Of a stretch of 64,000 nucleotides of DNA, positions 8,138 through 59,416 are shown in pieces. The notes beneath the pieces were generated by a model. The model had not been told where the DNA came from. It saw nothing but the letters and a program-made list of their open reading frames with translations, and searched no databases. The stretch's first letter is position 1. The number at the start of each line of letters is the position of its first letter. This stretch comes from Oceanispirochaeta sp. (GTDB lineage Bacteria > Spirochaetota > Spirochaetia > DSM-2461), in NCBI GenBank assembly GCA_963663385.2, contig CAXXXD010000002.1, positions 640,001 through 704,000 on the forward strand, read 5' to 3'. The position numbers were made by a program, and so were the translations under genes.

Positions 8138-8230
8138 ATTCAAAATCAAAAAGAACAATAATCCTCCTCCTGTTTGTTTAATAACAAAGTACCGGGATAT
8201 AAAAGAACCCGGAATAACAGGCAGGATAAA

Positions 8231-12854: not shown

Positions 12855-12881
12855 TAACTTTTCTCCTCAAAGTTTTTATTT

Positions 12882-34354: not shown

Positions 34355-35422
34355 CTAAATAGTATTGCTCCTGCGGAATTCACTGGGTGTCATTCCGTAT
34401 CGCTGTTTAAAAATTGTATTGAAAGTGCTTTTGGAGTTGAATCCGGTATAGAATGCAACCTCCAGAATATTCATGGAACGTTTTTCCAGGAGGATAACTT
34501 TTGCTTCCTCAAGACGGCGGGTATTTATAAGAGATCTGAAGTTCATTTCATATTTACGATTTACCAGCCGGGACATCTGATTCTCGGTAATGCCTATCAG
34601 TTCGGCAACCTGTCTGACAGATATATCAGAACGCGAATAGATGCGGTCTTTTTCTATCAGGACTTTAAGCTTCTGATCAGCTTCTTCAAGCCAGAGAGGA
34701 TTCTCATCCTTTTTCGGTGCCGGGGCCCTGGCGGGCATAAACAGCTGTGTTTCCTTAGGGTATCTGTAGGTAAACAGGATGGATGTGAACCCGAAGATTC
34801 CATATAAAACTATTGCGGCCATAACCAGAACATCGCTTTTAATAAAATGGGTTAACAGCATCATCGATGAACAGGTAAGGAACAGGACCGAAAGTATAAA
34901 GATCAGAAGGTTATAGTTATTTCTTTTACTCGAAATAATGCCTTTCTTTATAAGAAACAAGAAAAGAGCAGCTGCACATATTACAAAGAAATAATCTGAG
35001 AGGGAATTCAGAATCCGGAGTCTCTCAGGAAGAGCAAAATAGGGATGATAACTCCCGTCTGTATATTTGATTTCAACCGGATCTACAACATTAAGGAGAA
35101 CAATCACACTGAAAATAATTAAGAGCCACAAGAAAACGGGGATGATATACTGGTTTTTTTTCTGTATTGAATCAGTGATCATAGTAAAGTAAAGAAAAAG
35201 GAGTGGCCCGATAAAAAATGAGACGGCCGCATCGGTTCCATACAGGATTTCAGGAAGAACTGATGAATTATACATCCAGATATAAAACATATAATAGGCA
35301 AGGGAAAAGTACATAAAGGAAATAATATAGTTGAAAAAAGTCTTGTTTTTATAAACCAGCTGAATGACCCCTGCCAGAGAAAGACAAAGACTTGTTGCAA
35401 ATAAAAGGGATAAAACAATCAT
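34355..35422 (-). CDS. AraC family regulator with multi-TM sensor domain
   Basis: About 7 TM segments, then NFRSLINTRRLEEAK..EVAFYTGFNSKSTFNTIFK..GMTPSEFR. Confidence 0.92.
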   Translation of the reverse strand: MIVLSLLFATSLCLSLAGVIQLVYKNKTFFNYIISFMYFSLAYYMFYIWMYNSSVLPEILYGTDAAVSFFIGPLLFLYFTMITDSIQKKNQYIIPVFLWLLIIFSVIVLLNVVDPVEIKYTDGSYHPYFALPERLRILNSLSDYFFVICAAALFLFLIKKGIISSKRNNYNLLIFILSVLFLTCSSMMLLTHFIKSDVLVMAAIVLYGIFGFTSILFTYRYPKETQLFMPARAPAPKKDENPLWLEEADQKLKVLIEKDRIYSRSDISVRQVAELIGITENQMSRLVNRKYEMNFRSLINTRRLEEAKVILLEKRSMNILEVAFYTGFNSKSTFNTIFKQRYGMTPSEFRRSNTI

Positions 35423-35534
35423 TACAATTACCTCTCAGCTGAAAAACAAAACCTGAGGAATCCTCAATTCTCCCAGGCAATTTATCATTTCTCCGGAATT
35501 TTGTCATTGTTTATCCTCTCAGAACTGAAGGCAC

Positions 35535-35695
35535 TTTCCCGGCCCCTGCGGACAGCAGATCCGGCTGTCTGGGCAGGGCTTCTTTCGCCTCCTGTTCGGA
35601 AAAGAGATCGGCTTTGCGCAGGATGCTTGTTATGACCTGGCTCTGGCAGGGGAAGAGATAGGCCAGATCGAATACTCCGGCGGCGATTGGTCCAT
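35535..35695 (-). pseudogene. recQ: Decayed 5' fragment of recQ
   Basis: Reads MDQS-(deletion of about 22 nt)-AAGVFDLAYLFPCQSQVITSILRKADLFSEQEAKEALPRQPDLLSAGAGK, collinear with MDQSPDLLTRTAAEVFGLTYLFPYQRLVITNILRKAGLFSREEAEEAPPNQVVLLPTGAGK at 57533. Confidence 0.85.
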
Positions 35696-36351: not shown

Positions 36352-36618
36352 TTAAAACCTTCGACTATCCTGGCGTTCCACTGCCTCATTGACCCGTAGG
36401 TTACGGCCGTCAAGTTCTTTTCCATTGAAGGTCGAAATAGCTGCTGCAGCAGCATCGTCTTCTGCCATTTCAATAAATCCAAACCCTTTGGATCGGTTTG
36501 TATCCCGATCTGTAATGATACGGGTAGAGATTACTTCTCCATACTGTGCGAAAAGTTCGATGAGATCGTCTTCGATGGTATTCCAGCTAAGGTTACCAAC
36601 ATAAATTTTCTTAGACAT
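36352..36618 (-). CDS. RRM (RNP-1) RNA-binding protein
   Basis: IYVGNL (RNP2), RSKGFGFIEM (RNP1), GRNLRVNEA; start MSKK after GGAGA. Confidence 0.95.
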   Translation of the reverse strand: MSKKIYVGNLSWNTIEDDLIELFAQYGEVISTRIITDRDTNRSKGFGFIEMAEDDAAAAAISTFNGKELDGRNLRVNEAVERQDSRRF

Positions 36619-36770
36619 AATGTCTCCTATCCCGGAATGTTCCGGTATGTATAATTTTACTGAATGATTATTGAACTGCGGGAATCGGAATTGAAGACAG
36701 GAAACAAAAAATTGGTTACTTTTAAAACAATTATACGGTTCTACATTAAAAAGATCAGACTGTAGTCCAG

Positions 36771-36799
36771 ATAATATGTGGTTTCCTGACAAATGTCAA
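36771..36799 (-). promoter_or_regulatory. Sigma70-type promoter of the RRM gene (5' UTR about 145 nt)
   Basis: TTGACA-17 nt-TATTAT on the minus strand. Confidence 0.65.
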
Positions 36800-37564: not shown

Positions 37565-37623
37565 ACTGACACCTCCCCAGGTAAATCTCTCATTCCGGTT
37601 AGATCCTTTATGGAAATTCTCCG

Positions 37624-39105
37624 TCAGATCGATTCGGCCACTCTCTGAAAATGATATCCATATACAGCAAAGGTAAGGACCATCCTCAGCTTATCAGGAC
37701 AGTTAAACAGTGTATACCAGATCAGTTTCCAGAAATAGAACTTTCCATTCTTTTTCAGAACTCCAAGCTTAAGAAGAACTAAGAAAAATGATCGCAGACT
37801 GGAAAATGGACTGGCGTTGAGGTTTTCAAAAGGGTCCCTGTACTCTTCGAGAAAAACCCGGATTCTCTCAAAAAACAGCCTGGGGGAATAGATCTTTTTC
37901 ATAAGGGATCTGTATCCATTGATCAGAACATCCGGATGAATTTGGGGGATAAAATTCAGAATCCCATCCGTGTTATTTCCGGTCATATCCGCAATTATCC
38001 TGTTTTCCTTTTTCAGCCTTTTATAGAGACGGGTTCCCAAAGGAGCATTCAGAAGCCCTACCATAGCTGTGACAATCCCGCTGTTCTGAATAAATCTGGC
38101 CTGTCTATCAAAAATATCCACAGGATCGTTATCAAATCCAATGATAAACCCTCCCGAAACATTAAAACCTTTCCGCTGCATGATTTTCACACTCTGAATC
38201 AGATCCCGTCCCTGGTTCTGAATCTTATGACACTCATTCAGACTGGCTTCTTCCGAAGATTCAATTCCGATAAAACAGGTACTGAACCCGGCCTGCCTCA
38301 TCATATCCATCAGTTCCTCATCATCAGACATGTTTATAGAGGCTTCTGTTGTGAAATTGAAGGGATAATGGTGATCTTCCTGCCAGGAGATCAAAGCCGG
38401 AAGCATTTCACTTTTCAAACGGTTTTTATTCCCAATAAAATTATCATCTACAATAAAGACAGAACCTCTCCATTTCGCATCATACAGCGATGTCATTTCA
38501 TCAAGAAACTGATCCGTTTTTTTTACACGCGATTTATGACCGAAAAGAGCGGTTATGCTGCAGAACTCGCAATTGAATGGGCACCCTCTGGAATACTGAA
38601 GATCCATTGAAGCATAATCATTCAGATGAAGTAGACTCCAGTCCGGAATGGGGGTTTGTGACAGATCTGCAAAATCACCGGTCTCATAGACTCTTTTCAA
38701 ATGCCCCGATTCCAGATCCCGGACAAAAGGTTTCATCGTAATCTCTGCTTCATTCAACATAAAACAGTCTACATCGGGAAAACTCCCGGGATGCTGGGTG
38801 ACCATCGGACCGCCGGCTACAATTTTCGCCCCGACCTCTTTGCATCTTTTAACCACTTCTGTAAAAGATTTCTTCTGAATATCCATACCGCTAATGAAAA
38901 CAAAGTCAGCCCATAGAATATCTCTTAGAGACAACCTCCGCGTATTCAAATCCACCAGCTTTTTCTCCCACAACGAAGGAAGTAAGGATGCAACAGTCAA
39001 CAGGCCCAGAGGAGGGTCTGATGCTTTTTTGCCAATAAAGCTTAAAGCATATTTAAAGCTCCAGAATGTTATAGGTATTTCCGGATATATCAGGAGAATC
39101 TTCAA
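37624..39105 (-). CDS. B12-binding domain radical SAM protein with DUF4070-like C-terminus, copy 1
   Basis: TFWSF..PPLGLLTVA, VAGGP, SRGCPFNCEFC, FIVDDNFIGN, GGFIIGFDND; TTG start. Confidence 0.9.
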   Translation of the reverse strand: MKILLIYPEIPITFWSFKYALSFIGKKASDPPLGLLTVASLLPSLWEKKLVDLNTRRLSLRDILWADFVFISGMDIQKKSFTEVVKRCKEVGAKIVAGGPMVTQHPGSFPDVDCFMLNEAEITMKPFVRDLESGHLKRVYETGDFADLSQTPIPDWSLLHLNDYASMDLQYSRGCPFNCEFCSITALFGHKSRVKKTDQFLDEMTSLYDAKWRGSVFIVDDNFIGNKNRLKSEMLPALISWQEDHHYPFNFTTEASINMSDDEELMDMMRQAGFSTCFIGIESSEEASLNECHKIQNQGRDLIQSVKIMQRKGFNVSGGFIIGFDNDPVDIFDRQARFIQNSGIVTAMVGLLNAPLGTRLYKRLKKENRIIADMTGNNTDGILNFIPQIHPDVLINGYRSLMKKIYSPRLFFERIRVFLEEYRDPFENLNASPFSSLRSFFLVLLKLGVLKKNGKFYFWKLIWYTLFNCPDKLRMVLTFAVYGYHFQRVAESI

Positions 39106-39190
39106 ACTTAAACCTTCTACTCACAAATATACTATATTTATAATTATACCAGCCTAAATAATGGGTAAAGTAAAAGAAGTGTAAAATCTG

Positions 39191-40153
39191 ATGAGCACAG
39201 TTAAGAAAAAAATAACCCTCCGGACTTCGGTGACTATGTTTGTTCTTGTACAGATTTTCTTTCTCATACTGATAGGGCTTTGGATTTGGTTTTTTCTTAC
39301 TGATAATGAAATCAATCAGTCGTCGAACACTGTAATCAATTTCCCATTTTTTTCAGTCCCTGTGAAGACAGTTCTCTTTCTTTGTGGGCTATTACTGATT
39401 TTCCTGAATTCCGGAGGAACGTATTATTTATTTCAGAAATTCATTAAACAGACAAGAATTAATCGTATGTATGACAATTTTATCATCAATATAGTTCATG
39501 ACTTGAAGACACCTGCAGCATCCATTCAGCTGATTGGAGAAACACTTGCCAACAGAGACCTCTCAGATGATACTTATCATGATTTTCTTAACCGCCTGGA
39601 AAACGACACGACAAGGCTGAATCTGTTGATCAAATCCATTCTGGAGATTTCCAGAATATACAAGAAAAGTGACATGTTTTCGTTTGTTTCATTAAATGCG
39701 GATTTTTATGTCAGAACTGCAATCCGAGTTCTTCAAAGCCAATTCAACCTGGATAAAGACAGGATTTCTGTTGTTGGATATTCCAAGTGCCAGATAAGAA
39801 TAGATCCTTCTGCTTTTACAGCAGTCTTAAGCAATCTAATTGATAACTCAATAAAATACAGCTCCTCACCGGTGAAAATTAAAATATATTTAGGATATAA
39901 AAAGAAGAAGTTCATTTTAATTTTTTCAGATGAGGGAAGCGGTATCTCCCGGAAATTCAGAAAGCGTGTTTTCAAGAAGTTTGTTCAAATAAGAACGCTC
40001 CCCAATTCTACCCTCACAGGCTTGGGGTTAGGTCTCAACTGGTGCAGAGAGATTCTCCATATACACAAAGGAAGAATTCAGATTCAGCAAAAAAGGAATA
40101 GTAAGGGTACCTTTTTTTACATTGAACTGCCGGGAGACAGGTTGATTAATTAA
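39191..40153 (+). CDS. Sensor histidine kinase, copy 1
   Basis: Two TM segments, NIVHDLKTP H-box, NLIDNSIKYS, DEGSGI, GLGLGL. Confidence 0.92.
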   Translation: MSTVKKKITLRTSVTMFVLVQIFFLILIGLWIWFFLTDNEINQSSNTVINFPFFSVPVKTVLFLCGLLLIFLNSGGTYYLFQKFIKQTRINRMYDNFIINIVHDLKTPAASIQLIGETLANRDLSDDTYHDFLNRLENDTTRLNLLIKSILEISRIYKKSDMFSFVSLNADFYVRTAIRVLQSQFNLDKDRISVVGYSKCQIRIDPSAFTAVLSNLIDNSIKYSSSPVKIKIYLGYKKKKFILIFSDEGSGISRKFRKRVFKKFVQIRTLPNSTLTGLGLGLNWCREILHIHKGRIQIQQKRNSKGTFFYIELPGDRLIN

Positions 40154-40168
40154 TAAGAGGGGAACACA

Positions 40169-40897
40169 TTGGCTAACGGGGAATTAATACTTCTGATTGA
40201 AGACGATAGGAATTTGGCATCTAGTGTAATATACAATCTGGAAAATGAAGGTTACAGAGTTCTCTGGGCAGAAGAGGGACATCAGGCTATGAAACTGTCG
40301 GATAATGGTGACATAAGTCTTGTCATACTGGACATAATACTTCCTTATTACAACGGATTCACAATACTGGAAAAAATAAGGTCGGACTCGCCATCCTTGC
40401 CTGTAATTATCGTTTCAGCAAGATCTGAAGTACAGGATAAAATCATAGGCCTTTCACTGGGTGCTGATGATTATCTGCCGAAACCGTTTCATATCAAGGA
40501 ATTACTTATGAGAGTAGCCGGAATGCTTAAGAGAAGGAACTGGTATAGAACGAATATTTCCGATATGGACGATTTTTCCTTTGGCGAAAACAGAATCAAT
40601 TTTGAAAATGCGACCTGCCAGTCCCCCAAGGGGTCATTTAAGCTGACACCTCTTGAAAGCGCCCTGTTAAAGTGCTTTATCTTAAACGAAGACCAGATAC
40701 TATCCAAACAGGAACTTCTTATGAAGGTTTGGAAAACGAGTACTGAAACAGAAACCCGAACTGTCGATAACTTTGTAATGCGGCTAAGAAAATACTTTGA
40801 AGAAGACCCTTCCAAACCAGTGTATTTTAAAAATATCAGAAAAAGAGGATACATATTCTCAACCAGAGGAGAATGGCATGAAAAAGGAAAAGAATGA
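40169..40897 (+). CDS. OmpR/PhoB family response regulator, copy 1
   Basis: LIEDD, LDIILP, GADDYLPKPF, TRTVDNFVMRLRKYFEEDP. Confidence 0.93.
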   Translation: MANGELILLIEDDRNLASSVIYNLENEGYRVLWAEEGHQAMKLSDNGDISLVILDIILPYYNGFTILEKIRSDSPSLPVIIVSARSEVQDKIIGLSLGADDYLPKPFHIKELLMRVAGMLKRRNWYRTNISDMDDFSFGENRINFENATCQSPKGSFKLTPLESALLKCFILNEDQILSKQELLMKVWKTSTETETRTVDNFVMRLRKYFEEDPSKPVYFKNIRKRGYIFSTRGEWHEKGKE

Positions 40898-41741
40898 ACA
40901 AACGAAACTATTTGATATAATTAGCAATAGAATCTTTACACACAGGTTTATTTCAGGTATTGCCGGGGATCGCTTACAGTCAACCGAAGAAAAAGAGCTC
41001 TATGAAACTCTTTTAGAAGAATCAGAAGGAGACCTGTATGTAAAAGTTCTCTTCCATCTTACAAATGAAGTCTTTAATAAAGAAAAAGCCATTACAATCT
41101 GGAAAGCCATAATTGATCATAAAAGTTACTTGTCCAGACAACTCAATAGAAATGTTGAAATTACAGTAGCGACTCTGGATTATCTGACAAATATTAAAGA
41201 TGAGATTACGGAACCTAAGATAATAGGAAGCGCCTTTTTGGGGAAGATTGTTGAGCTATCCTCTGTGGATACATTAACAAAATTGTACAACAGACAGCAC
41301 CTGATGCAGGTTTTATCCAAAGAGACCAGTCGATTCAAACGCTATAAGATTCCATTCTCTCTCCTGATGATTGATATCGATCATTTTAAATCTATAAATG
41401 ATAAATACGGGCATCAAACGGGAGATAACGTTCTGGTGGAAATCAGTAAGTTACTGATTCTCGATCTGAGAGAGCTGGATATCTGTACAAGATTCGGCGG
41501 GGAAGAGTTTATGATCGTTCTTCCTCATACAACAGAGCCTGAATCCTATGAACTAGCAGAACGCATAAGAGAAAGAGTAGAAGAAAAGTACCGGGATGAG
41601 ATGAGAATAACAATCAGTATAGGAATATCAATTATCACGGAACAGAATAATGAGATTTCGGAAATCATAAGGAGAGCCGATAATGCCCTTTATCAGTCAA
41701 AGAAAAATGGTCGAAATAAGACGACCCTCTCAGATATTTAA
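40878..41741 (+). CDS. Diguanylate cyclase with an unassigned N-terminal helical domain
   Basis: DTLTKLYNR, DIDHFKSINDKYGH, RELDICTRFGGEEF; ATG 40878 overlaps the RR end. Confidence 0.9.
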   Translation: MKKEKNEQTKLFDIISNRIFTHRFISGIAGDRLQSTEEKELYETLLEESEGDLYVKVLFHLTNEVFNKEKAITIWKAIIDHKSYLSRQLNRNVEITVATLDYLTNIKDEITEPKIIGSAFLGKIVELSSVDTLTKLYNRQHLMQVLSKETSRFKRYKIPFSLLMIDIDHFKSINDKYGHQTGDNVLVEISKLLILDLRELDICTRFGGEEFMIVLPHTTEPESYELAERIRERVEEKYRDEMRITISIGISIITEQNNEISEIIRRADNALYQSKKNGRNKTTLSDI

Positions 41742-48510: not shown

Positions 48511-50058
48511 CTATTGTTCCGGCGGGGTGCTTCTCACGCCGGGAATCCTTACCTCTCCGTCAATGAGTCTGCCTTTCCAGCTTCCCCCGGGGATCTTCCG
48601 GATCTTTCCGGTTAGAATCATTCCTCCGATTATCTCCATTACATCATCCGGATCCCACTCTCTGAAAATACCGAAGCCCGGGGACCTGTAATACCGTCCC
48701 TGCCGGATTCCGCTGCTGAATCTTCCCAGCAGGAAATCTCCCAGCAGCCGTGAATCAAACCGTTTTCTATATACCCGGACAACACCTTTAACTGTATCTT
48801 CCGCCGGATCCTTCAGTATCACTTCGCCCCGGCAGACATCACAGTTGTCGCAGTCCTCGGGTTCAGCCTCCAGAATGGCCAGGAGACTCTCCCGGCGGCA
48901 GGTTGTTGAATCTTCTGCAAAGGCAACCAGTTTTCCGTACCGTTCCCGCAGCTCGGATCGGGGATTCGCCTTCTCCCGGTCGCGATCCTCCGGATGATAG
49001 AGCAGCACCGCCCGGCAGGGCTGTCTGTCCCGTCCCGCCCTGCCCGATTCCTGCAGGTAGGCCTCTACAGAAGAGGGGAGGGCCAGGTGAATAACCGTGC
49101 GGATATTTCCCTTGTCCATTCCCATGCCGTAGGCACAAGTGGAGCATAATATTCCTTCAGAAGAATCAAAAAACCATTTTTCCCGTTTTGTCCGGAGAGT
49201 GGGAGACAAGCCTGCATGGTAGTAGCGAATCTCATCAGGTACCAGTTCATTTATTCTTTCCCGAAGAATAAGAGCCACCTGTTCACACAGACGGCGTGTA
49301 GGGCAGAATATAATAGCCGGTCTTTCCGCTGTCTTTAAAACATCTTCCAGACCTTTTGTCCGTGAAAGAACCGGACGGACCTCATAATGGATATTCACCC
49401 TGTCCGGATTAGCCCTGACCAGATTAAAAGATCTGTCTTTTAAAAGATAATCCTGAATCTTTCCCAGAATAAGGGGCGAGGCGGTGGCGGTAAAAGCGGT
49501 GACCTGCTCAACCGGAAGATTGTTAAAGGTTTTACCCAGCTCCAGGCAGGCCGGGCGGAAGGTCTCACCCCATTCGGGAATGGTATGGGCTTCGTCGATG
49601 ACCAGATGGGAGATTTTCACATCTTTCAGTTTGTCCTGTACTTCGGGCAGGGTCAGCATCTCCGGGTTGGTCAGAAGCATCCGGATCTCTCCGGCCTGTA
49701 CGGAGCGCCATATATCCTCCTTCTCTTTGCGGCTCATTCCGCCCTTCAGCAGGGCCCCTTTCATCCCTGCCTCCTCCACCCGGCGGAGCTGATCCGCCAT
49801 TAATCCAAGGAGGGGAAACACGACAATCGTCAGACCCGGGAGAAGGGCGGCCGGCAGCATAAAGCAGAGGCTCTTCCCGGCCCCAGTGGGCAGCAGAACC
49901 ACCTGATTGGGCGGGGCTTCCTCCGCTTCCTCTCTGGAGAAAAGACCGGCTTTGCGGAGGATGTTTGTAATAACCAGGCGCTGGTAGGGGAAGAGGTAAG
50001 TGAGACCGAAGCGTTCGGCGGCGGTACGGGTGAGGATATCGGTTTTTTGTTCTTCCAT
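48511..50058 (-). CDS. recQ: RecQ family ATP-dependent DNA helicase (full length, no HRDC seen)
   Basis: LPTGAGKSLCF, IDEAH, FTATA, YHAGL, YGMGMDK, QESGRAGRD, Zn site CRR..CDNCDVC. Confidence 0.93.
   Translation of the reverse strand: MEEQKTDILTRTAAERFGLTYLFPYQRLVITNILRKAGLFSREEAEEAPPNQVVLLPTGAGKSLCFMLPAALLPGLTIVVFPLLGLMADQLRRVEEAGMKGALLKGGMSRKEKEDIWRSVQAGEIRMLLTNPEMLTLPEVQDKLKDVKISHLVIDEAHTIPEWGETFRPACLELGKTFNNLPVEQVTAFTATASPLILGKIQDYLLKDRSFNLVRANPDRVNIHYEVRPVLSRTKGLEDVLKTAERPAIIFCPTRRLCEQVALILRERINELVPDEIRYYHAGLSPTLRTKREKWFFDSSEGILCSTCAYGMGMDKGNIRTVIHLALPSSVEAYLQESGRAGRDRQPCRAVLLYHPEDRDREKANPRSELRERYGKLVAFAEDSTTCRRESLLAILEAEPEDCDNCDVCRGEVILKDPAEDTVKGVVRVYRKRFDSRLLGDFLLGRFSSGIRQGRYYRSPGFGIFREWDPDDVMEIIGGMILTGKIRKIPGGSWKGRLIDGEVRIPGVRSTPPEQ
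49120..49998. repeat. 879-bp direct repeat within recQ (partner 56598-57476, offset 7478)
   Basis: Aligns with 56598-57476; only two mismatches spotted by eye (49579/57057 and 49639/57117). Confidence 0.95.
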
Positions 50059-50280
50059 ACCCCTATATACACAGCCACATCCTCTGCTGCTTCAAAGGTT
50101 ATTTTAATATAATTTTGAGCTGTATCGAATCTCGGGAGGACTATATAAGGTACTGGCAAAATTCCGGATTCAAAAAAACTTCCAGGTAATGGTCAAATCA
50201 AGAAAGATTCTGTATTGGAAGGGTTACACCACAATTATTACCGGAGTACTGCTTGAATGCTGAAAAAGCCATTCCACGTG

Positions 50281-51762
50281 TCAGATAGATTCGGCCACTC
50301 TCTGAAAATGATATCCATATACGGCAAAGGTAAGAGCCATCCTCAGTTTTTCAGGATAGTTAAATAATGTATACCAGAATAGTTTCCAAAAATAGAACTT
50401 TCCATCCTTTTTTAGAACACCAAGCTTAAGAAGAACCAGAACAAATGATCGCAGACTGGAAAATGGACTGGCGTTGAGGTTTTCAAAAGGGCCCCTGTAC
50501 TCTTCGAGAAAAACACGGATTCTCTCAAAAAACAGCTTAGGGGAATAGATCTTTTTCATAAGGGACTTGTATCCATTAATCAGAACATCAGGAGGAATCT
50601 TGGGGATAAAATTCAGAATTCCATCCGTGTTATTTCCGGTTATACCCGCAATTATCCTTTTTTCCTTTTTCAGTCTTTCATACAGACGGGTTCCCAATGG
50701 AGCATTCAGAAGCCCTACCATAGCTGTGACAATCCCGCTGTTCTGAATAAATCTGGTCTGCCTATCAAAAATATCCACAGGATCGTTATCAAATCCTATG
50801 ATAAACCCTCCCGAAACATTGAAACCCTTCCGCTGCATGATTTTAACACTCTGAATCAGATCCCGTCCCTGGTTCTGAATTTTATGACACTCATTCAGAC
50901 TGGCTTCTTCCGAAGATTCAATTCCGATAAAACAGGTACTGAATCCGGCCTGCCTCATCATATCCATCAGTTCCTCATCATCAGACATGTTTATAGAGGC
51001 TTCTGTCGTAAAATTGAAGGGATAATGGTGATCTTCCTGCCAGGATATCAAAGCCGGAAGCATTTCACTTTTCAAACGGTTTTTATTCCCAATAAAATTA
51101 TCATCTACAATAAAGACAGAACCTCTCCACTTCGCCTTATACAGCGATGTCATTTCATCAAGAAACTGATCCGTTTTTTTTACACGTGATTTATGACCGA
51201 AAAGAGCGGTTATGCTGCAGAACTCGCAATTGAATGGGCACCCTCTGGAATACTGAAGATCCATTGAAGCATAATCATTCAGATGAAGTAGACTCCAGTC
51301 CGGAATGGGGGTTTGTGACAGATCTGCAAAATCACCGGTCTCATAGACTCTTTTCAAATGCCCCGATTCCAGATCCCGGACAAAAGGTTTCATCGTAATC
51401 TCTGCTTCATTCAACATAAAACAGTCTACATCGGGAAAACTCCCGGGATGCTGGGTGACCATCGGACCGCCGGCTACAATTTTCGCCCCGACCTCTTTGC
51501 ATCTTTTAACCACTTCTGTAAAAGATTTCTTCTGAATATCCATACCGCTGATGAATACAAAGTCAGCCCATAAAATATCGTTTAGAGACAACCTCCGCGT
51601 ATTCAAATCCACCAGCTTTTTCTCCCACAACGAAGGAAGTAAGGATGCAACAGTCAACAGGCCCAGAGGAGGGTCTGATGCTTTTTTGCCAATAAAGCTT
51701 AAAGCATATTTAAAGCTCCAGAATGTTATAGGTATTTCCGGATATATCAGGAGAATCTTCAA
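50281..51762 (-). CDS. B12-binding domain radical SAM protein with DUF4070-like C-terminus, copy 2
   Basis: Same motifs as copy 1; substitutions concentrated in the C-terminal third. Confidence 0.9.
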   Translation of the reverse strand: MKILLIYPEIPITFWSFKYALSFIGKKASDPPLGLLTVASLLPSLWEKKLVDLNTRRLSLNDILWADFVFISGMDIQKKSFTEVVKRCKEVGAKIVAGGPMVTQHPGSFPDVDCFMLNEAEITMKPFVRDLESGHLKRVYETGDFADLSQTPIPDWSLLHLNDYASMDLQYSRGCPFNCEFCSITALFGHKSRVKKTDQFLDEMTSLYKAKWRGSVFIVDDNFIGNKNRLKSEMLPALISWQEDHHYPFNFTTEASINMSDDEELMDMMRQAGFSTCFIGIESSEEASLNECHKIQNQGRDLIQSVKIMQRKGFNVSGGFIIGFDNDPVDIFDRQTRFIQNSGIVTAMVGLLNAPLGTRLYERLKKEKRIIAGITGNNTDGILNFIPKIPPDVLINGYKSLMKKIYSPKLFFERIRVFLEEYRGPFENLNASPFSSLRSFVLVLLKLGVLKKDGKFYFWKLFWYTLFNYPEKLRMALTFAVYGYHFQRVAESI

Positions 51763-51847
51763 ACTTAAACCTTCTACTCACAAATATACTATATTTATAA
51801 TTATACCAGCCTAAATAATGGGTAAAGTAAAAGAAGTGTAAAATCTG

Positions 51848-52810
51848 ATGAGCACAGTTAAGAAAAAAATAACCCTCCGGACTTCGGTGACTATGTTTGT
51901 TCTTGTACAGATTTTCTTTCTCATACTGATAGGGCTTTGGATTTGGTTTTTTCTTACTGATAATGAAATCAATCAGTCGTCGAACACTGTAATCAATTTC
52001 CCATTTTTTTCAGTCCCTGTGAAGACAGTTCTCTTTCTTTGTGGGCTATTACTGATTTTCCTGAATTCCGGAGGAACGTATTATTTATTTCAGGAATTCA
52101 TTAAACAGACAAGAATTAATCGTATGTATGACAATTTTATCATCAATATAGCTCATGACTTGAAGACACCTGCAGCATCCATTCAGCTGATTGGAGAAAC
52201 ACTTGCCAACAGAGACCTCTCAGATGATACTTATTATGATTTTCTTAACCGCCTGGAAAACGACACGACAAGGCTGAATCTGTTGATCAAATCCATTCTG
52301 GAGATTTCCAGAATATACAAGAAAAGTGACATGTTTTCGTTTGTTTCATTAAATGCGGATTTTTATGTCAGAACTGCAATCCGAGTTCTTCAAAGCCAAT
52401 TCAACCTGGATAAAGACAGGATTTCTGTTGTTGGATATTCCAAGTGCCAGATAAGAATAGATCCTTCTGCTTTTACAGCAGTCTTAAGCAATCTAATTGA
52501 TAACTCAATAAAATACAGCTCCTCACCGGTGAAAATTAAAATATATTTAGGATATAAAAAGAAGAAGTTCATTTTAATTTTTTCAGATGAGGGAAGCGGT
52601 ATCTCCCGGAAATTCAGAAAGCGTGTTTTCAAGAAGTTTGTTCAAATAAGAACGCTCCCCAATTCTACCCTCACAGGCTTGGGGTTAGGTCTCAACTGGT
52701 GCAGAGAGATTCTCCATATACACAAAGGAAGAATTCAGATTCAGCAAAAAAGGAATAGTAAGGGGACCTTTTTTTACATTGAACTGACGGGAGACAGGTT
52801 GATTAATTAA
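51848..52810 (+). CDS. Sensor histidine kinase, copy 2
   Basis: NIAHDLKTP H-box; four amino-acid differences from copy 1 seen. Confidence 0.92.
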   Translation: MSTVKKKITLRTSVTMFVLVQIFFLILIGLWIWFFLTDNEINQSSNTVINFPFFSVPVKTVLFLCGLLLIFLNSGGTYYLFQEFIKQTRINRMYDNFIINIAHDLKTPAASIQLIGETLANRDLSDDTYYDFLNRLENDTTRLNLLIKSILEISRIYKKSDMFSFVSLNADFYVRTAIRVLQSQFNLDKDRISVVGYSKCQIRIDPSAFTAVLSNLIDNSIKYSSSPVKIKIYLGYKKKKFILIFSDEGSGISRKFRKRVFKKFVQIRTLPNSTLTGLGLGLNWCREILHIHKGRIQIQQKRNSKGTFFYIELTGDRLIN

Positions 52811-52825
52811 TAAGAGGGGAACACA

Positions 52826-53530
52826 TTGGCTAACGGGGAATTAATACTTCTGATTGAAGACGATAGGAATTTGGCATCTAGTGTAATATACAATCTGGAA
52901 AATGAAGGTTACAGAGTTCTCTGGGCAGAAGAGGGACATCAGGCTATGAAACTGTCGGATAATGGTGACATAAGTCTTGTCATACTGGACATAATACTTC
53001 CTTATTACAACGGATTCACAATACTGGAAAAAATAAGGTCGGACTCGCCATCCTTGCCTGTAATTATCGTTTCAGCAAGATCTGAAGTTCAGGATAAAAT
53101 CATAGGTCTTTCACTGGGTGCAGATGATTATCTGCCGAAACCGTTTCATTTAAAAGAATTGCTTTTGAGAGTAGCCGGAATGCTAAAAAGGAGGAACTGG
53201 TATAGAAATAATATTTCCGATATAGACGATTTTTCCTTTGGCGAAAACAGAATCAATTTTGAAAATGCGACCTGCCAGTCCCCAAAAGGGTCATTTCAAC
53301 TGACACCTCTTGAAAGTGCCCTGCTAAAGTGCTTTGTCTTAAACGAAGATCAAATACTATCCAAACAGGAACTTCTTAAGAAGGTTTGGAAAACGAGTAC
53401 TGAAGCAGAAACCCGAACTGTCGATAACTTTGTGATGCGGATAAGAAAATACTTTGAAGAAGATCCTTCCAAGCCAGTGTACTTCAAAAATATCAGGAAT
53501 AGGGGATACATATTCTCAACCAAAGGATAA
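52826..53530 (+). CDS. OmpR/PhoB family response regulator, copy 2
   Basis: Receiver identical to copy 1 up to KPFH; earlier stop (GAA to TAA). Confidence 0.93.
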   Translation: MANGELILLIEDDRNLASSVIYNLENEGYRVLWAEEGHQAMKLSDNGDISLVILDIILPYYNGFTILEKIRSDSPSLPVIIVSARSEVQDKIIGLSLGADDYLPKPFHLKELLLRVAGMLKRRNWYRNNISDIDDFSFGENRINFENATCQSPKGSFQLTPLESALLKCFVLNEDQILSKQELLKKVWKTSTEAETRTVDNFVMRIRKYFEEDPSKPVYFKNIRNRGYIFSTKG

Positions 53531-53770
53531 TGAAAGGAAAGAGGAAAAGAATGAGCAAACGAAACTATTTGATATAAAAGGATGGTTAAATAAAATACCG
53601 CAAAGGGGATTTCCCGGAAAAACTGGAATCGGCTGAAAACACTTCTCAAAAGACTCAAAGCAAATTGACAGGACACAAGTACACACAATTCAAATGAAAA
53701 GGTTTATACTTAAATATATGTATACTTGATAATCTAAAAAGATTATTTCGGGAAATAAAGGATAGACACT

Positions 53771-56308
53771 ATGGCTGCAGAATGCAATTTTGAGGGAATA
53801 AAAAAAATAGCTCACCCCAGAATTTCTCGTGATCTGCTTGAAGTGATATGCTCGGAGAAAGAAGCATCAGATAAACAAAAAAAGGAGATCGCAAAGATAT
53901 CCACAGACTTAGGCAGTAATTTCTATAGGGAAGTTCTTTTTTTATTGACTTATAGCGAGATTGATAACCCCGAAGTTGCAGAAAGAATCTGCCACAGTAT
54001 CGCAAAACATAAAATTGAAATGCAAAAAAAGCTTAAAAGAACTGTTCTTCTGGAAATTGCCGCATTGGACTATATCCATTCCAGAAGCAAAGCTGACTTA
54101 CCCGTTATGGTCAATAAGGATAATATCATCAATCAAATAGCCAGGCAGGCCATTACGGACAGTAAAACCACAGCATTCTCTGGTGAACAGTTGAAGGTTG
54201 ATATTCAAAAGGAAATGGATAGGACATTTAGATACGGCTTGACATTTTCTGTCATCATGATTGACCTGGACAACTTCAAAGCGATAAATGACACTCATGG
54301 ACACCAGAAGGGAGACCTTGCACTACAATTCTTCGCCTTACTCGTAGTTGAAAATCTCAGAAAACTGGATATTTTGTATCGTTTCGGCGGAGATGAATTT
54401 CTCATACTGCTCCCTCAGACTAATATTAAAGGGGCAGGGAAAATTGCCCTCAAATTACTAAAACTGCTCAATACAACTCCCTGTGAAGCTATTGGGCAGA
54501 CGATCTCTGCCAGTATGGGAGTTTCAGCTTATGGGAATATATACAGCAATAGTTATACAAAGCTGATTGATAGTGCAGACCAGGCTCTATACAAGGCGAA
54601 AGCAGAAGGGAAAAACCTTATAGCCCTATTCAGAGAAGGGAAATGTGTAATTCTCAAACAGGGAAAAGGCAAACAGCTAAAAAGCAGCAAAAATGAAAAT
54701 GAAAAAACTCCATGCCATCCAATTGTACCGGGATACGCTATGGGAGAGATTTATCTCTACAAAGATATTTTCTCCAGCCGAATAAGCCAATATGAAATTA
54801 AAGCAGAGGAAGTGGAAAATGAACTGGAGCGGATCAGGATAGCCATAATGAGTGTTGTCGATGATCTGTCGGAAATGCAGAGCATCGTTGAAGAAGAAAT
54901 GAGCAAAGAGCATGGAGCTATTTTCCTCGCCCACAAGTTGATTCTTCAGGACAGCCATATTTTCAATGATATAGAAAATGAATTAAACGAAAAATTATTA
55001 AACGGTGAGATTATCGTCAGAGATATATTCCGTAAACTGGAAACGAGATTTCTTCTATTCGAAGACAAGCAACGAAATGACAAAGCCAAAGATATCAGGG
55101 ACATCGGCGGTAGAGTCGTAAGAAAACTTCAGGGTAAAGACAAAAACCTGCTATCATCGCTACCGGAAAACACCATTCTTCTCTCTCAGAGACTACTTCC
55201 TTCCGATACTGTTTTCCTCGATAAGAAACATGTCAGAGCAATAATTACCGTAGAGGGGAGCCGCGGTTCCCATTCCGCCATTCTGGCGCGCGCTCTCGAT
55301 ATCCCCTATGTAACAATACGCCGGGAAATTGAACATCTGCCCAATCATACACAGGTTATTGTCGATGGCAACGGCAGCTCCATCATAACCAACCCTGATG
55401 CCCAGCTCATAAAAAAATACAGCGAACTTATAGAAGAGCAGAAATCAGCGGCCCTTCCGCAGGTCGTCTCTAGCAAACCTCTTGAATTCCATGGTAGAAA
55501 AATCTCACTTTTAGCTAATGTTTCCTGTCGGGAGGAAGCTCTGGAAGCCTTGTCAGCCGGAGCGGAAGGTGTAGGATTGTTCCGTGTGGAAAACATCTAT
55601 ATGTCGAGCCGAACAATGCCCGATGAAGATTATCTCCTGTCCCGTTTCACAGATATCCTCAACCCTTTGAAGGGTAAGGAGATAACTGTCAGGCTGGTAG
55701 ATATCGGTTCTGATAAAGTTCCGTCATATCTCAATCTGGGTAATGAAATCAATCCGGCTCTGGGTCTCAGAGGGGTGCGACTTCTCTTAAAACACAGAAA
55801 ACTGCTCCAAACACAACTATCTGCTTGTATAAGATTGAATAAAGAAATACCTGTTAAAATCATGCTTCCCATGGTAACGATGCCCTTGGAAATCAGACAA
55901 GTGCGCAATATTTTGAATAAAATGGATGGCGGAGACAAGATACAGATAGGAACCATGATTGAAACTCCTGCCGCAGTATTCCATATAGATGAGATATTGG
56001 AGGAATCTGATTTTATCAGCATAGGTACCAATGATCTCATTCAGTACACCATGGCATCGGACAGGGAAAATAAAGATGTAGCAGAGTATTTTGATAAAGG
56101 ATTTCAGGCACTGAGCAGAACTCTCGAAAATATATTCAAGAAGTCCAGAGAGGCTTCAAAGGACTGTGCGGTCTGCGGTGAAGCCGCTGGAGACAGCGAT
56201 TATATTCCGTCGCTGCTTAAACTGGGTCTAACGAAATTCAGCGTACTGCCGAATCTTATCCATAGGGTCAGAAAAGAAATTATCGAATACTCTGAAGCTG
56301 AGAATTGA
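53771..56308 (+). CDS. Fusion of N-terminal helical domain, GGDEF domain and PTS Enzyme I (PEP-protein phosphotransferase)
   Basis: DLDNFKAINDTHGH, RKLDILYRFGGDEF; then PGYAMG, IFLAHKLILQD, SHSAILARALDIP (phospho-His), GVGLFR, NPALGLRGVR, MIETPAA, SIGTNDLIQY, VCGE. Confidence 0.9.
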   Translation: MAAECNFEGIKKIAHPRISRDLLEVICSEKEASDKQKKEIAKISTDLGSNFYREVLFLLTYSEIDNPEVAERICHSIAKHKIEMQKKLKRTVLLEIAALDYIHSRSKADLPVMVNKDNIINQIARQAITDSKTTAFSGEQLKVDIQKEMDRTFRYGLTFSVIMIDLDNFKAINDTHGHQKGDLALQFFALLVVENLRKLDILYRFGGDEFLILLPQTNIKGAGKIALKLLKLLNTTPCEAIGQTISASMGVSAYGNIYSNSYTKLIDSADQALYKAKAEGKNLIALFREGKCVILKQGKGKQLKSSKNENEKTPCHPIVPGYAMGEIYLYKDIFSSRISQYEIKAEEVENELERIRIAIMSVVDDLSEMQSIVEEEMSKEHGAIFLAHKLILQDSHIFNDIENELNEKLLNGEIIVRDIFRKLETRFLLFEDKQRNDKAKDIRDIGGRVVRKLQGKDKNLLSSLPENTILLSQRLLPSDTVFLDKKHVRAIITVEGSRGSHSAILARALDIPYVTIRREIEHLPNHTQVIVDGNGSSIITNPDAQLIKKYSELIEEQKSAALPQVVSSKPLEFHGRKISLLANVSCREEALEALSAGAEGVGLFRVENIYMSSRTMPDEDYLLSRFTDILNPLKGKEITVRLVDIGSDKVPSYLNLGNEINPALGLRGVRLLLKHRKLLQTQLSACIRLNKEIPVKIMLPMVTMPLEIRQVRNILNKMDGGDKIQIGTMIETPAAVFHIDEILEESDFISIGTNDLIQYTMASDRENKDVAEYFDKGFQALSRTLENIFKKSREASKDCAVCGEAAGDSDYIPSLLKLGLTKFSVLPNLIHRVRKEIIEYSEAEN

Positions 56309-56591
56309 TCGCTATATAATTGCACATGAGTCTAAAACCCTGGCGGAAATTCTATTATTTGAGTGAGAACCCCGCCCCAATTCTTTTAGACTTCAACCGG
56401 ATTTATGCACTACTTCGGAAATTATGGACATATGAATCCTCATTATGAGATATATGCGGCGCTCACCATTCACTTGTCCTCTGACGAGTGAAACTTAATA
56501 TAGAAAATTTGAACAATTATGCCCGCTCTGTAAAGACATTACAGAATATACTGATTTGAAAGAGGCGAGAAATTATTAAACCCAACATAAA

Positions 56592-57533
56592 TTACAGTCC
56601 CATGCCGTAGGCACAAGTGGAGCATAATATTCCTTCAGAAGAATCAAAAAACCATTTTTCCCGTTTTGTCCGGAGAGTGGGAGACAAGCCTGCATGGTAG
56701 TAGCGAATCTCATCAGGTACCAGTTCATTTATTCTTTCCCGAAGAATAAGAGCCACCTGTTCACACAGACGGCGTGTAGGGCAGAATATAATAGCCGGTC
56801 TTTCCGCTGTCTTTAAAACATCTTCCAGACCTTTTGTCCGTGAAAGAACCGGACGGACCTCATAATGGATATTCACCCTGTCCGGATTAGCCCTGACCAG
56901 ATTAAAAGATCTGTCTTTTAAAAGATAATCCTGAATCTTTCCCAGAATAAGGGGCGAGGCGGTGGCGGTAAAAGCGGTGACCTGCTCAACCGGAAGATTG
57001 TTAAAGGTTTTACCCAGCTCCAGGCAGGCCGGGCGGAAGGTCTCACCCCATTCGGGGATGGTATGGGCTTCGTCGATGACCAGATGGGAGATTTTCACAT
57101 CTTTCAGTTTGTCCTGAACTTCGGGCAGGGTCAGCATCTCCGGGTTGGTCAGAAGCATCCGGATCTCTCCGGCCTGTACGGAGCGCCATATATCCTCCTT
57201 CTCTTTGCGGCTCATTCCGCCCTTCAGCAGGGCCCCTTTCATCCCTGCCTCCTCCACCCGGCGGAGCTGATCCGCCATTAATCCAAGGAGGGGAAACACG
57301 ACAATCGTCAGACCCGGGAGAAGGGCGGCCGGCAGCATAAAGCAGAGGCTCTTCCCGGCCCCAGTGGGCAGCAGAACCACCTGATTGGGCGGGGCTTCCT
57401 CCGCTTCCTCTCTGGAGAAAAGACCGGCTTTGCGGAGGATGTTTGTAATAACCAGGCGCTGGTAGGGGAAGAGGTAGGTAAGTCCGAATACTTCGGCGGC
57501 GGTCCGGGTCAGAAGGTCGGGGGATTGGTCCAT
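56592..57533 (-). pseudogene. recQ: 3'-truncated recQ copy
   Basis: Start MDQSPDLL (ATG 57533); matches full recQ until CAYGMG, then L-stop; lacks motif VI and the Zn/RQC domain. Confidence 0.9.
56598..57476. repeat. 879-bp direct repeat (partner 49120-49998)
   Basis: Aligns with 49120-49998. Confidence 0.95.
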
Positions 57534-57798
57534 ATCTGTTTTATGCCCGGAAACGGGGTTGTGATTCAAAGGTGGTTTATCTGTACAGGATAAAGCTAAG
57601 GAAAAGAGAAAAAACAACCTCACCAGTATTTTAACGGGACTTGCTGTCATATACGGAATACAGATTCCCGTTGACAGGCCGGCATTTATAAAGGATAGTT
57701 TATTCAATGAATTAACTATCGAAATCGTATCTGAATTTCACCAGTTATCCGATATTTCAACGCCGGAAACTCCAAATAATAATCAATGAGGAAAAATC

Positions 57799-58342: not shown

Positions 58343-59416
58343 ATGTTTCGTCCGGATGAGTATTTCAACCTTTTTGTCTGCGGACTTTGTGTTGTCATGT
58401 CCCTCGGACTTCTTCAGAAGCCCATTAATCTGAGGAAAATCCTTCTTGCCTGTATTCTCCTGTCTCTCGGGTACATTCAGTTTGTTACAGTACTGATCTC
58501 TTCCCGCCTTGTTTATCACTATCCCGGGTTCTATTACAGTTCTCTTCCGTTTGGCTATTCTCTCTCTCCTCTGGTTTACTTTTATATCAGAAGTTTCATG
58601 CAGGAAGCTCCGAAGTTTAAAAGAAGAGATCTGCTGCATTTTGTTCCGGCCCTGCCTCTGGCAGGCATTTACTTCAATTATCGTACCCTTCCCCGGACCG
58701 ATATGATTCTGAAAATCGATATGTTCTACGATGGGCTGTCATCTTTCGGGCTATGGATCTGTCTGAATATTCTGGTGTATACACTCTATGCTGTGTTTAT
58801 AGGTAAGGCTTTGATCAAAGTCTTTCACAGGGAGAATCCCCTGCACCGTCGCCTGGTCCGATTGTTTTTACTGCTTCTCTCCTGGGCTATTCTGCTTACC
58901 GCCCGGGTGATCAGTATGCGATGGAGAATTGATCTTCTCTGGCGGATTGTCGATTGTGCGATTTGCCTGGAGCTGCTTCTGTTTTATTTTCATCTGCAGC
59001 GTTATCCCGTTCTCCTCAGTTACGCCCATATAGGGAACACCGTGAAGAAGCGCAGCGGTTCTTCCATTCTGGAAGGACTGGATACGCAAAGTCTTAAACG
59101 GAATATTGAGATTATGATGGATGAAGACAGGCTTTTCTGTGATGAAGATCTAAGCCTGAGCCGTTTTTCCCATGCCCTTGAAATCAGCTCCCATCAGCTT
59201 TCCGCGTTTCTTAATGAGCATTACGGAAGGAATTTCAACGTTTTTGTCAACGGCTACAGGATTCGTTATGCCTGTGAACTTATGAATACCGATTCCGATA
59301 TGAGCACACTCTCCATTTCATTTGCCTGCGGATTCAATTCCTACTCCGCCTTTTTTGCGGCTTTTAAAAAGGAGACGGGCCAATCACCACGGGACTACAA
59401 GAATAATTGCAAATGA
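58343..59416 (+). CDS. AraC family regulator with multi-TM sensor domain
   Basis: About 6-7 TM segments (PLVYFY, LLHFVP), then HQLSAFLN..NFNVFVNGYRI..CGFNSYSAFFAAFKKETGQSP. Confidence 0.92.
   Translation: MFRPDEYFNLFVCGLCVVMSLGLLQKPINLRKILLACILLSLGYIQFVTVLISSRLVYHYPGFYYSSLPFGYSLSPLVYFYIRSFMQEAPKFKRRDLLHFVPALPLAGIYFNYRTLPRTDMILKIDMFYDGLSSFGLWICLNILVYTLYAVFIGKALIKVFHRENPLHRRLVRLFLLLLSWAILLTARVISMRWRIDLLWRIVDCAICLELLLFYFHLQRYPVLLSYAHIGNTVKKRSGSSILEGLDTQSLKRNIEIMMDEDRLFCDEDLSLSRFSHALEISSHQLSAFLNEHYGRNFNVFVNGYRIRYACELMNTDSDMSTLSISFACGFNSYSAFFAAFKKETGQSPRDYKNNCK

Follow-up and report, generated by a model that had tools for sequence, protein, structure and literature searches.

An N-terminal helical domain and a GGDEF domain fused to a complete Enzyme I in Oceanispirochaeta sp.

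The phosphorylation state of the phosphotransferase system (PTS) and cyclic di-GMP (c-di-GMP), a second messenger, are both among the main routes by which bacteria choose a motile or a sessile life. On the PTS side, EI-Ntr (PtsP) is a complete Enzyme I (EI) with an N-terminal sensory module, placed in a regulatory branch that feeds HPr/NPr and EIIA-Ntr; its GAF domain binds glutamine and 2-oxoglutarate. On the c-di-GMP side stand the I-site cyclases of the PleD, WspR and DgcZ type, and PopA and PelD, which represent c-di-GMP receptors with a degenerate GGDEF domain. To our knowledge, the links between the two systems run through separate proteins, at the level of EIIA. In Vibrio cholerae, EIIA-Glc is linked to c-di-GMP enzymes, namely a phosphodiesterase and a GGDEF/EAL-type partner, MshH (accessible parts of PMC6877527 and PMC3509428), and the accessible part of PMC2405797 describes multiphosphoryl transfer proteins, such as FruB (EIIA-HPr-EI), in which EI is fused to other modules, and defines the Ntr group of EIs by an N-terminal GAF. 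Here we analyze a gene that encodes, in a single chain, an N-terminal helical domain (NHD), a GGDEF domain and a complete EI. It lies at 53771..56308 on the forward strand of a 64,000-nucleotide stretch of the marine-type spirochaete Oceanispirochaeta sp. (the window; positions 640001-704000 of contig C2 of the source genome, G000, which has contigs C1, C2 and C3). Judged from its sequence, the fusion protein fits best among regulatory EIs of the EI-Ntr kind, as a variant with a new input, and is likely an active cyclase at the same time; it is uncharacterized in the literature searched. The gene and its parts are as follows.

53771..56308, forward strand: whole gene, NHD-GGDEF-linker-EI, a single open reading frame (ORF) of 845 aa with an ATG start (Pfam, NCBIfam)
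53771..54148, forward strand: NHD, residues 1-126, core about 15-110 (helices in AlphaFold2 [AF2] models, profile search)
54149..54616, forward strand: GGDEF domain, residues 127-282 (PF00990, 6.5e-35)
54158..54187, forward strand: variant 'wide-turn' motif DSKTTAFSGE, residues 130-139, in place of DxLTxLxNRR (translation)
54359..54370, forward strand: RKLD, the RxxD I-site, residues 197-200, five residues before GGDEF (translation)
54386..54400, forward strand: GGDEF active-site motif, residues 206-210 (translation)
54617..54718, forward strand: Lys-rich linker joining GGDEF to EI, residues 283-316 (low pLDDT at 298-306; least conserved segment)
54719..55066, forward strand: EI N-terminal domain, PEP-utilisers_N, residues 317-432 (Pfam, 3e-16)
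55163..55372, forward strand: EI mobile His domain, PEP-utilizers, residues 465-534, with the His501 codon at 55271-55273 (Pfam, 2.3e-15)
55490..56284, forward strand: EI C-terminal domain, PEP-utilizers_C, which binds phosphoenolpyruvate (PEP), residues 574-838, with the Cys802 codon at 56174-56176 (Pfam, 5.2e-79)

The original prediction, of an 845-aa ORF with a helical N terminus, a GGDEF domain, a linker and a complete EI, was borne out by translation, Pfam and NCBIfam, and all of the motifs that it named stand where it placed them (DLDNFK at residues 165-170 and VCGE at 801-804, for example); EI begins at residue 317, at about nucleotide 54719. The open frame to which the gene belongs is 849 aa long, with only four more open codons upstream of the ATG, and AAAGGA stands about 9 nt 5' of that ATG. 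The three EI domains occur in order, each above its Pfam cut-off, and the EI family profile TIGR01417 (PTS_I_fam) matches with 408.6 bits (cut-off 341.7), residues 317-844 covering profile positions 5-543 of 565. The GGDEF profiles score 120.7 bits for PF00990 (cut-off 23.8) and 144.2 for TIGR00254 (cut-off 37.4). Both equivalog profiles fall below their cut-offs, at 296.3 bits versus 824 for PtsI (NF008382) and 275.5 versus 583 for EI-Ntr/PtsP (NF008283); Pfam finds no GAF domain in the protein (E<=0.01) and neither an HPr nor an EIIA domain. By these profiles, the fusion is an EI-family protein and not an orthologue of the E. coli-type PtsI. When it is compared with canonical PtsI (E. coli and Staphylococcus; 2hwg, 2hro and 2wqd), residues 41-536 of the EI part align to 2hro (E 5.3e-79) and the fusion differs by 316 extra N-terminal residues; the canonical EI of the source genome itself is only 33% identical to the fusion and belongs to a separate EI clade.

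Alignment to the solved EIs 2hro and 2wqd places GSRGSHSAI of the fusion on GGRTSHSAI of 2hro and CGE on CGE, and in the EI C domain the active-site Cys and the residues of the PEP/Mg site are in register with both structures. His501, Cys802, R605, R641, E731, N754 and D755 are invariant in a 17-sequence alignment (A1). As far as these alignments tell, the EI catalytic set (phospho-His, Cys and PEP/Mg-site residues) is complete in the fusion. The GGDEF domain in turn aligns over its whole length with active cyclases of solved structure (PleD, 1w25, at 1.4e-20), and shares with I-site cyclases of the PleD, WspR and DgcZ type the GGDEF motif, the DxD, the N/D of INDxxGHxxGD, and an RxxD five residues upstream. 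Residues 165-182, DLDNFKAINDTHGHQKGD, form the stretch of the metal-binding Asp and the guanine-binding Asn/Asp (DxDxFKxxNDxxGHxxGD); across 46 NHD-GGDEF sequences D165, D167, N173, G206, G207, E209 and F210 are invariant and D182 is near-invariant. The fusion differs from those cyclases in its input (NHD instead of REC, CZB or GAF), in the DSKT..FSGE segment, and in its C-terminal EI.

That segment had been called a degenerate form of the DxLT..NRR motif that precedes GGDEF. It is indeed non-canonical, but the variant is a trait of the subfamily rather than a mark of decay. In the motif counts given here and below, which rest on 20 fusion representatives among the best 150 NHD-bearing representatives, the canonical pattern D.[LMIV]T.[LVIM].N[RKH] is matched by none of the 20 fusions, versus 31 of 96 stand-alone NHD-GGDEF proteins, and a DxLTxLYD-type variant is frequent among stand-alone NHD-GGDEF relatives with an intact GGDEF. 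Because no fusion carries the canonical motif and many intact stand-alone relatives likewise depart from it, we do not take the variant as evidence of decay. The cyclase of the window protein is probably active, as predicted from these residues, and we regard it as highly probable that the gene is a true fusion with both modules functional.

The architecture recurs. Full-length orthologues were found in four of 38 scanned genomes of the same family as the source: the source genome itself, G008 (98% identity), G009 (66%) and G016 (64%). Three of the 38 hold a second type that is more distant, at 37-40% identity (contig C3 of the source genome, G005, and G017, where the match is interrupted by the contig end), and Pfam returns the same domain order on the loci of G008, G009, G016, G005 and contig C3. 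In a cluster search of 5.8 billion proteins, 18 of the best 120 clusters combine PF00990 with EI domains, at identities from 100% down to 34%. The source names of fusion members are uniformly plain 'phosphoenolpyruvate--protein phosphotransferase'; coming from Spirochaeta isovalerica, two Elusimicrobia metagenome-assembled genome (MAG) records and one Omnitrophota MAG, they put members in Spirochaetota, Elusimicrobia and Omnitrophota. No match at E<=1e-100 occurs in 400 sampled further genomes of the phylum, drawn from 61 other families, and an A1-profile scan of genome contigs with generic EI motif patterns kept 80 loci, which are ordinary EIs with no fusion member among them. Across these collections the fusion is thus real, conserved and rare, with a narrow and patchy distribution.

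Nor is it unique, as had been entertained at the outset, since the family includes relatives with a degenerate GGDEF domain or none. The phospho-His of EI is kept in all 20 fusion representatives and the Cys of CGE in every sequence that reaches that far; GG[DE]EF is kept in 13 of the 20, and RxxD in 18, including five of the seven with a degenerate GGDEF. The source genome's paralogue on contig C3 (808 aa) has TYDRNRF in place of GGDEF and retains RLTD; by likeness, it and the five degenerate representatives that keep RxxD resemble the PopA/PelD type of c-di-GMP receptor, from which the window protein differs in that its GGDEF is not degenerate. In three metagenome proteins of 697-708 aa (P0021, P0022 and P0023) EI follows the NHD directly, the GGDEF domain being absent, which indicates that the NHD alone can serve as the N-terminal partner in the clade of fused EIs. 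Among 10 close orthologues, the mean pairwise identity is 70% for GGDEF, 72-74% for the EI domains and 48% for the linker, with the N-terminal part of EI (EIN, residues 317-460) the most conserved segment at 74%. A quick maximum-likelihood tree of EI (69 rows) places 21 of 21 NHD-bearing EIs within one group of 27 rows (SH-aLRT 89), which also takes in six stand-alone EIs, with the canonical and GAF-type EIs of the source genome at a distance. The pattern is consistent with a single origin of the fusion, followed by decay or loss of GGDEF.

The N-terminal region had been described simply as a helical domain. Helical it is (residues 20-27, 34-63, 67-88 and 94-104 in both AF2 models), and it proves to be more than that: a conserved, DUF4032-like domain that defines a subfamily of cyclases. 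Pfam has no match over residues of about 15-110 of the fusion. We therefore ran an NHD profile of seven segments against 1.84 billion representatives and classified the best 150 matches with hidden Markov models from our own alignments. At E<=1e-3 the profile matches 688 representatives, of which 157 also pass E<=1e-10; the best 150 comprise 96 NHD-GGDEF proteins (mostly about 290-310 aa), 20 NHD-GGDEF-EI fusions, 28 with the NHD only (mostly fragments) and six split hits. With 96 of these 150 being NHD-GGDEF, the NHD is the signature input domain of a subfamily of cyclases of about 300 aa. Its signature, HK..L...L.R.V...VAALDY..N, includes the near-invariant His80 (147/149), Arg90 (145/147), Asp100 (146/146) and Tyr101 (133/146), and this His-Arg-Asp-Tyr set suggests a ligand, metal or phospho-acceptor site. 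The link to DUF4032 (PF13224) is weak: 16 of 30 aligned NHD relatives match, at best with 1.6e-5, the window's own NHD does not, a stand-alone NHD-GGDEF cyclase elsewhere in the window (40797..41741) reaches 4.1e-4, under the cut-off, and in an ESM Atlas query with the NHD only DUF4032 leads, on 15-16% of members. Foldseek of the NHD against the PDB returned nothing at E<=0.001 (best 1.7), and gave no evidence of a new fold; a wide VIA-align search found generic helical pieces and no specific fold (best Z 5.3). The full-length fusion, used as an ESM Atlas query, returned only generic GGDEF clusters, under 0.9, which are uninformative on the fusion.

The source genome has five EI-family genes above cut-off: one canonical, two GAF-type (a GAF match of 5.8e-14 in that at locus L003), the fusion, and the degenerate fusion on contig C3. 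It has a single HPr, on contig C1, with the motifs GLHARPA (His15) and KSIMG (Ser46), whose gene adjoins HPrK and an ORF resembling a hibernation factor. Ten PTS_EIIA_2 (EIIA-Ntr-type) domains are spread over the genome, several within long ORFs and all outside the window, and the EIIC family PF02378 has no match in the whole genome, other EIIC and EII families lying outside the scan. For the three families scanned genome-wide (HPr, PTS_EIIA_2 and PF02378), the earlier remark that the window holds no HPr or EII gene is upheld. With five EI paralogues, ten PTS_EIIA_2 domains, one HPr and one HPrK, this PTS is unusually branched; from its gene content it looks like a regulatory system in which several sensor EIs converge on one HPr. 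A group of EI genes is described as typical of organisms without PTS transporters in the accessible part of PMC2405797.

The best explanation, to which we give about even chances of being right, is that the fusion is an EI-Ntr-like sensor EI with an NHD-GGDEF module substituting for GAF, and that in this clade it is a working cyclase too. It would share with EI-Ntr the complete EI with an N-terminal sensory module and a regulatory branch feeding HPr/NPr and EIIA-Ntr, and differs in having the NHD plus GGDEF, an enzyme and nucleotide binder, where EI-Ntr has GAF; in the two GAF-type EIs of the source genome, GAF occupies the very position that NHD-GGDEF occupies in the fusion. On this explanation, PEP would phosphorylate His501 and the phosphoryl group would pass to the genome's single HPr, which would hand it on to the many EIIA-Ntr-type domains, with the NHD-GGDEF module setting the rate of this flux. 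The movements of EIN and the His domain would be restrained or released by a signal at the NHD in concert with c-di-GMP bound at the RxxD I-site, whether that c-di-GMP comes from the GGDEF pair in cis or from other cyclases. The EI dimer, formed through its C-terminal domain, would hold two GGDEF domains together, so that in this orthologue clade the protein may also be a working cyclase with product feedback. We favor control running mainly from the N-terminal module to EI, the second of the two options in the original prediction, though with a little less than even confidence, because EI never decays, GGDEF catalysis is often lost, the I-site is mostly kept, the NHD is always present, and the module's position mirrors that of GAF. 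The original prediction saw here the best candidate for a new signaling system; the fusion is real and both catalytic sets are intact, but 'new signaling system' overstates what is better described as a new input variant of an EI-Ntr-type regulatory EI.

Several points weigh against this explanation. GGDEF is as conserved as EI in the orthologue clade, which fits control of the cyclase by EI equally well. In the full-length AF2 model the pTM is 0.46 and the linker has a pLDDT below 50, and since the model has no confident inter-domain packing, no structural route of coupling is visible. The genes beside the fusion vary between orthologues (the radical SAM, kinase and regulator genes of the window recur together in G008, whereas G009 has a Crp-like gene and G016 radical SAM and PAS genes), and HPr or EIIA stands beside the fusion gene in none of the five annotated fusion loci. 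The group that points to a single origin has an SH-aLRT of only 89, comes from a quick tree, and has six stand-alone EIs inside it. Finally, the functions of the fusion's EI residues (phospho-His501, Cys802 and the PEP/Mg site) are those that we take to hold from the EI literature, and those of its I-site, metal-binding Asp and guanine-binding Asn/Asp are likewise assumed from the PleD literature. Homodimer prediction for two copies of residues 1-300 (scores of 0.34, 0.34 and 0.16, versus a mark of 0.42) carries no weight either way.

The alternative that survives best, and that we regard as a serious though distinctly less probable account, reverses the direction, in line with the first option of the original prediction: EI would be the sensor and the cyclase the output, with PEP binding or autophosphorylation tightening the EI dimer or moving EIN and so pairing the GGDEF domains, such that c-di-GMP follows the PEP/pyruvate ratio. 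EI dimerization responds to PEP/Mg and diguanylate cyclases need dimers, and the intact GGDEF of the 10-member clade is conserved like EI. NHD-GGDEF is, moreover, the commoner parent architecture (96 versus 20 of the best 150), so EI looks like the part that joined a cyclase. As unfused genes, EI and NHD-GGDEF also occur in one co-directional cluster in G010 and G015, although the EI tree puts the EIs of these clusters outside the fusion clade and rejects them as sisters of the fused EI; being near-identical (branch lengths 0-0.003), the clusters count as one event. Further evidence against EI as the sensor is that GG[DE]EF is lost in seven of 20 fusion representatives while the EI His is kept in all, that NHD-EI proteins exist without any cyclase, and that the long, flexible linker is poorly conserved. 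The two directions of control are not mutually exclusive.

The clusters themselves read, on one strand, EI (564-577 aa), a 425-aa ORF without a Pfam hit, DUF6320 (285 aa) and NHD-GGDEF (291 aa); because G015 holds two copies, this EI/DUF6320/NHD-GGDEF cluster may be mobile. Separately, the contig scan with the A1 profile yielded a Gammaproteobacteria MAG (L014), from an unrelated phylum, in which a GGDEF gene (7632-8591) is followed about 1.5 kb downstream, on the same strand, by an EI gene (10066-11853), and the N terminus of that GGDEF protein is without an NHD.

The flexible, Lys-rich linker, the lack of confident inter-domain contacts in the model and the differing genomic context of the orthologues would also suit two functionally independent enzymes that the fusion merely co-expresses or co-localizes, without allosteric coupling. 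We consider this improbable, given that the architecture persists between deeply diverged members (as low as 34% identity), placed in three phyla by source names, and that proteins which have lost catalysis still carry the GGDEF domain with its I-site, a sign that this domain has a role inside the protein.

Somewhat less probable again is that the NHD is a PTS-controlled phospho-acceptor, comparable to a PRD, in which EI, directly or via HPr, would phosphorylate His80 and thereby switch the cyclase. The near-invariance of His80, Arg90 and Asp100 and the ties of the NHD to EI, by fusion in 20 of the best 150 representatives and by the shared cluster in G010 and G015, favor it; however, the NHD has no PRD or HPt match (only the weak DUF4032 link), the fold searches gave nothing specific, the His-Arg-Asp set suits a ligand or metal site equally, and most NHD-GGDEF genes in the family genomes are not beside an EI gene.

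The explanation of the fusion as a sensor EI with an NHD-GGDEF input takes the gene itself as sound, and its surroundings bear on this. The neighboring features are the following.

37623..40920: paralogous cassette of radical SAM, kinase and regulator genes, sharing 96.9% identity with 50280-53577 (repeat comparison)
40797..41741, forward strand: stand-alone NHD-GGDEF cyclase (GGEEF, canonical DTLTKLYNRQ) after the paralogous cassette (Pfam)
49117..50031, reverse strand: recQ repeat copy A, 915 nt, within the recQ-like gene at 48511..50058, which is full-length (98.9% identity with 56595-57509)
50032..56594: low-GC island, GC 0.37-0.42 versus 0.44-0.54 in flanking bins, between two recQ-like 5' copies (GC bins, repeat comparison)
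50281..51762, reverse strand: radical SAM protein that binds B12 and carries DUF4070, in divergent orientation to the kinase (Pfam)
51848..52810, forward strand: histidine kinase, 320 aa, upstream of the fusion on the same strand (HisKA and HATPase_c)
52826..53530, forward strand: OmpR-type response regulator, 234 aa, upstream of the fusion on the same strand (Response_reg and Trans_reg_C)
56595..57509, reverse strand: recQ repeat copy B, within the truncated recQ-like ORF 56592..57707 (repeat comparison, Pfam)

The 915-nt repeats are in direct orientation and represent the 5' part of the recQ-like gene, bracketing an island of 6.6 kb. From this arrangement of sequence, the layout looks like integration via recombination through a recQ fragment carried by the element. 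Contigs from other public runs, none of the listed runs being RNA, span the fusion: that of run X2 (record 9) covers 53400-56627 with 0 differences, that of run X6 (record 15) covers 53400-56700 with three, and that of run X11 (record 2), from a distinct strain, covers 53585-55025 with 15, all three crossing the GGDEF-EI junction; X2 and X6 may be the source sample itself, because their contigs are near-identical to the window. As junction-crossing contigs occur in other public runs, the fusion is not an assembly artefact, a doubt raised with the original prediction and answered also by the orthologues in G008, G009 and G016. It is thus extremely improbable that the gene is such an artefact, or a pseudogene decaying in a recently rearranged island, even though it sits between 915-nt repeats that are 98.9% identical and beside a 3.3-kb duplication (96.9%), because its frame is without interruption, all catalytic residues checked are intact, the architecture recurs in those three genomes and, at identities as low as 34%, among metagenome proteins, and the junction is crossed by contigs of other runs.

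The 3.3-kb duplication places one copy (37623-40920) before the stand-alone NHD-GGDEF cyclase and the other (50280-53577) before the GGDEF-EI fusion. Homology in the second copy reaches 47 nt beyond the stop codon of the regulator, a segment corresponding to the cyclase ORF's 5' end in the first copy. A recent origin of the fusion from this neighboring cyclase was considered and rejected, as the two are only 33% identical (over residues 27-286). A third version of this recQ 5' end, an about 78% identical relic, lies at 35529-35685, where the other low-GC cassette has its edge, and that first cassette also holds a bacterial RNA recognition motif (RRM_1) protein at 36352-36792 on the reverse strand (8.7e-22). 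Just beyond each of the two low-GC cassettes lies one of two AraC-family regulators with multi-span membrane N termini, at 34355-35422 (reverse strand, 355 aa) and 58343-59416 (forward strand, 357 aa).

The same island layout is found in G008, with an IS3-type element (an rve integrase of 303 aa and a 106-aa ORF; locus L107, contig C2, about 11990-13218) between the regulator and the fusion; this element is absent from the window. In G009 the fusion is accompanied by a recQ-like gene in truncated form and by a Crp-like gene, and in G016 by a radical SAM gene directly upstream and a PAS gene. A scan of 51700-56700 for promoters and terminators was no richer than shuffled sequence (10 matches versus a mean of 13.1, and three versus 4.3), and a TTGATA-16-TAAAAT match upstream of the fusion, at 53569-53596, carries no weight as evidence.

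The statement that no GGDEF-EI fusion has been characterized agrees with the full-text literature searched, which contains no description of one; most subscription papers lie outside that literature, where a prior mention is possible. The accessible parts of PMC1183210, PMC10333796, PMC10100716, PMC2405797 and PMC12943098 hold no description of such a fusion. PTS/c-di-GMP cross-talk in V. cholerae likewise ties PTS phosphorylation to c-di-GMP turnover, but through separate proteins at the EIIA level, as far as the accessible parts of the papers on it go. Proteins of the FruB type differ in another way, in that the partners of EI are PTS phosphocarriers, where those of the fusion are NHD and GGDEF.

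Taking the family as a whole, we tentatively suggest, as a possibility of rather low probability, that the fusions and their degenerate or GGDEF-less relatives are c-di-GMP-gated EIs, in which c-di-GMP together with an NHD ligand or phospho-His80 would act on the phosphorylation state of HPr and the EIIA-Ntr network, and that the intact members would in addition pass PEP status on to c-di-GMP; if true, this would be a two-way junction of PTS and c-di-GMP within one polypeptide. If the halves are uncoupled, the protein would merely be one more multidomain signaling protein. The analysis also singles out an uncharacterized, widespread domain, the NHD, which with its 688 representative clusters and its His-Arg-Asp-Tyr signature would control a whole subfamily of cyclases. 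A cyclase and an EI in a single chain, with relatives that keep the I-site and lack catalysis, offer a compact, purifiable system for PTS/c-di-GMP coupling, in which it could be asked of one protein whether c-di-GMP gates the first step of the PTS, PEP status gates c-di-GMP synthesis, or both. The family may thus link carbon status to second-messenger signaling.

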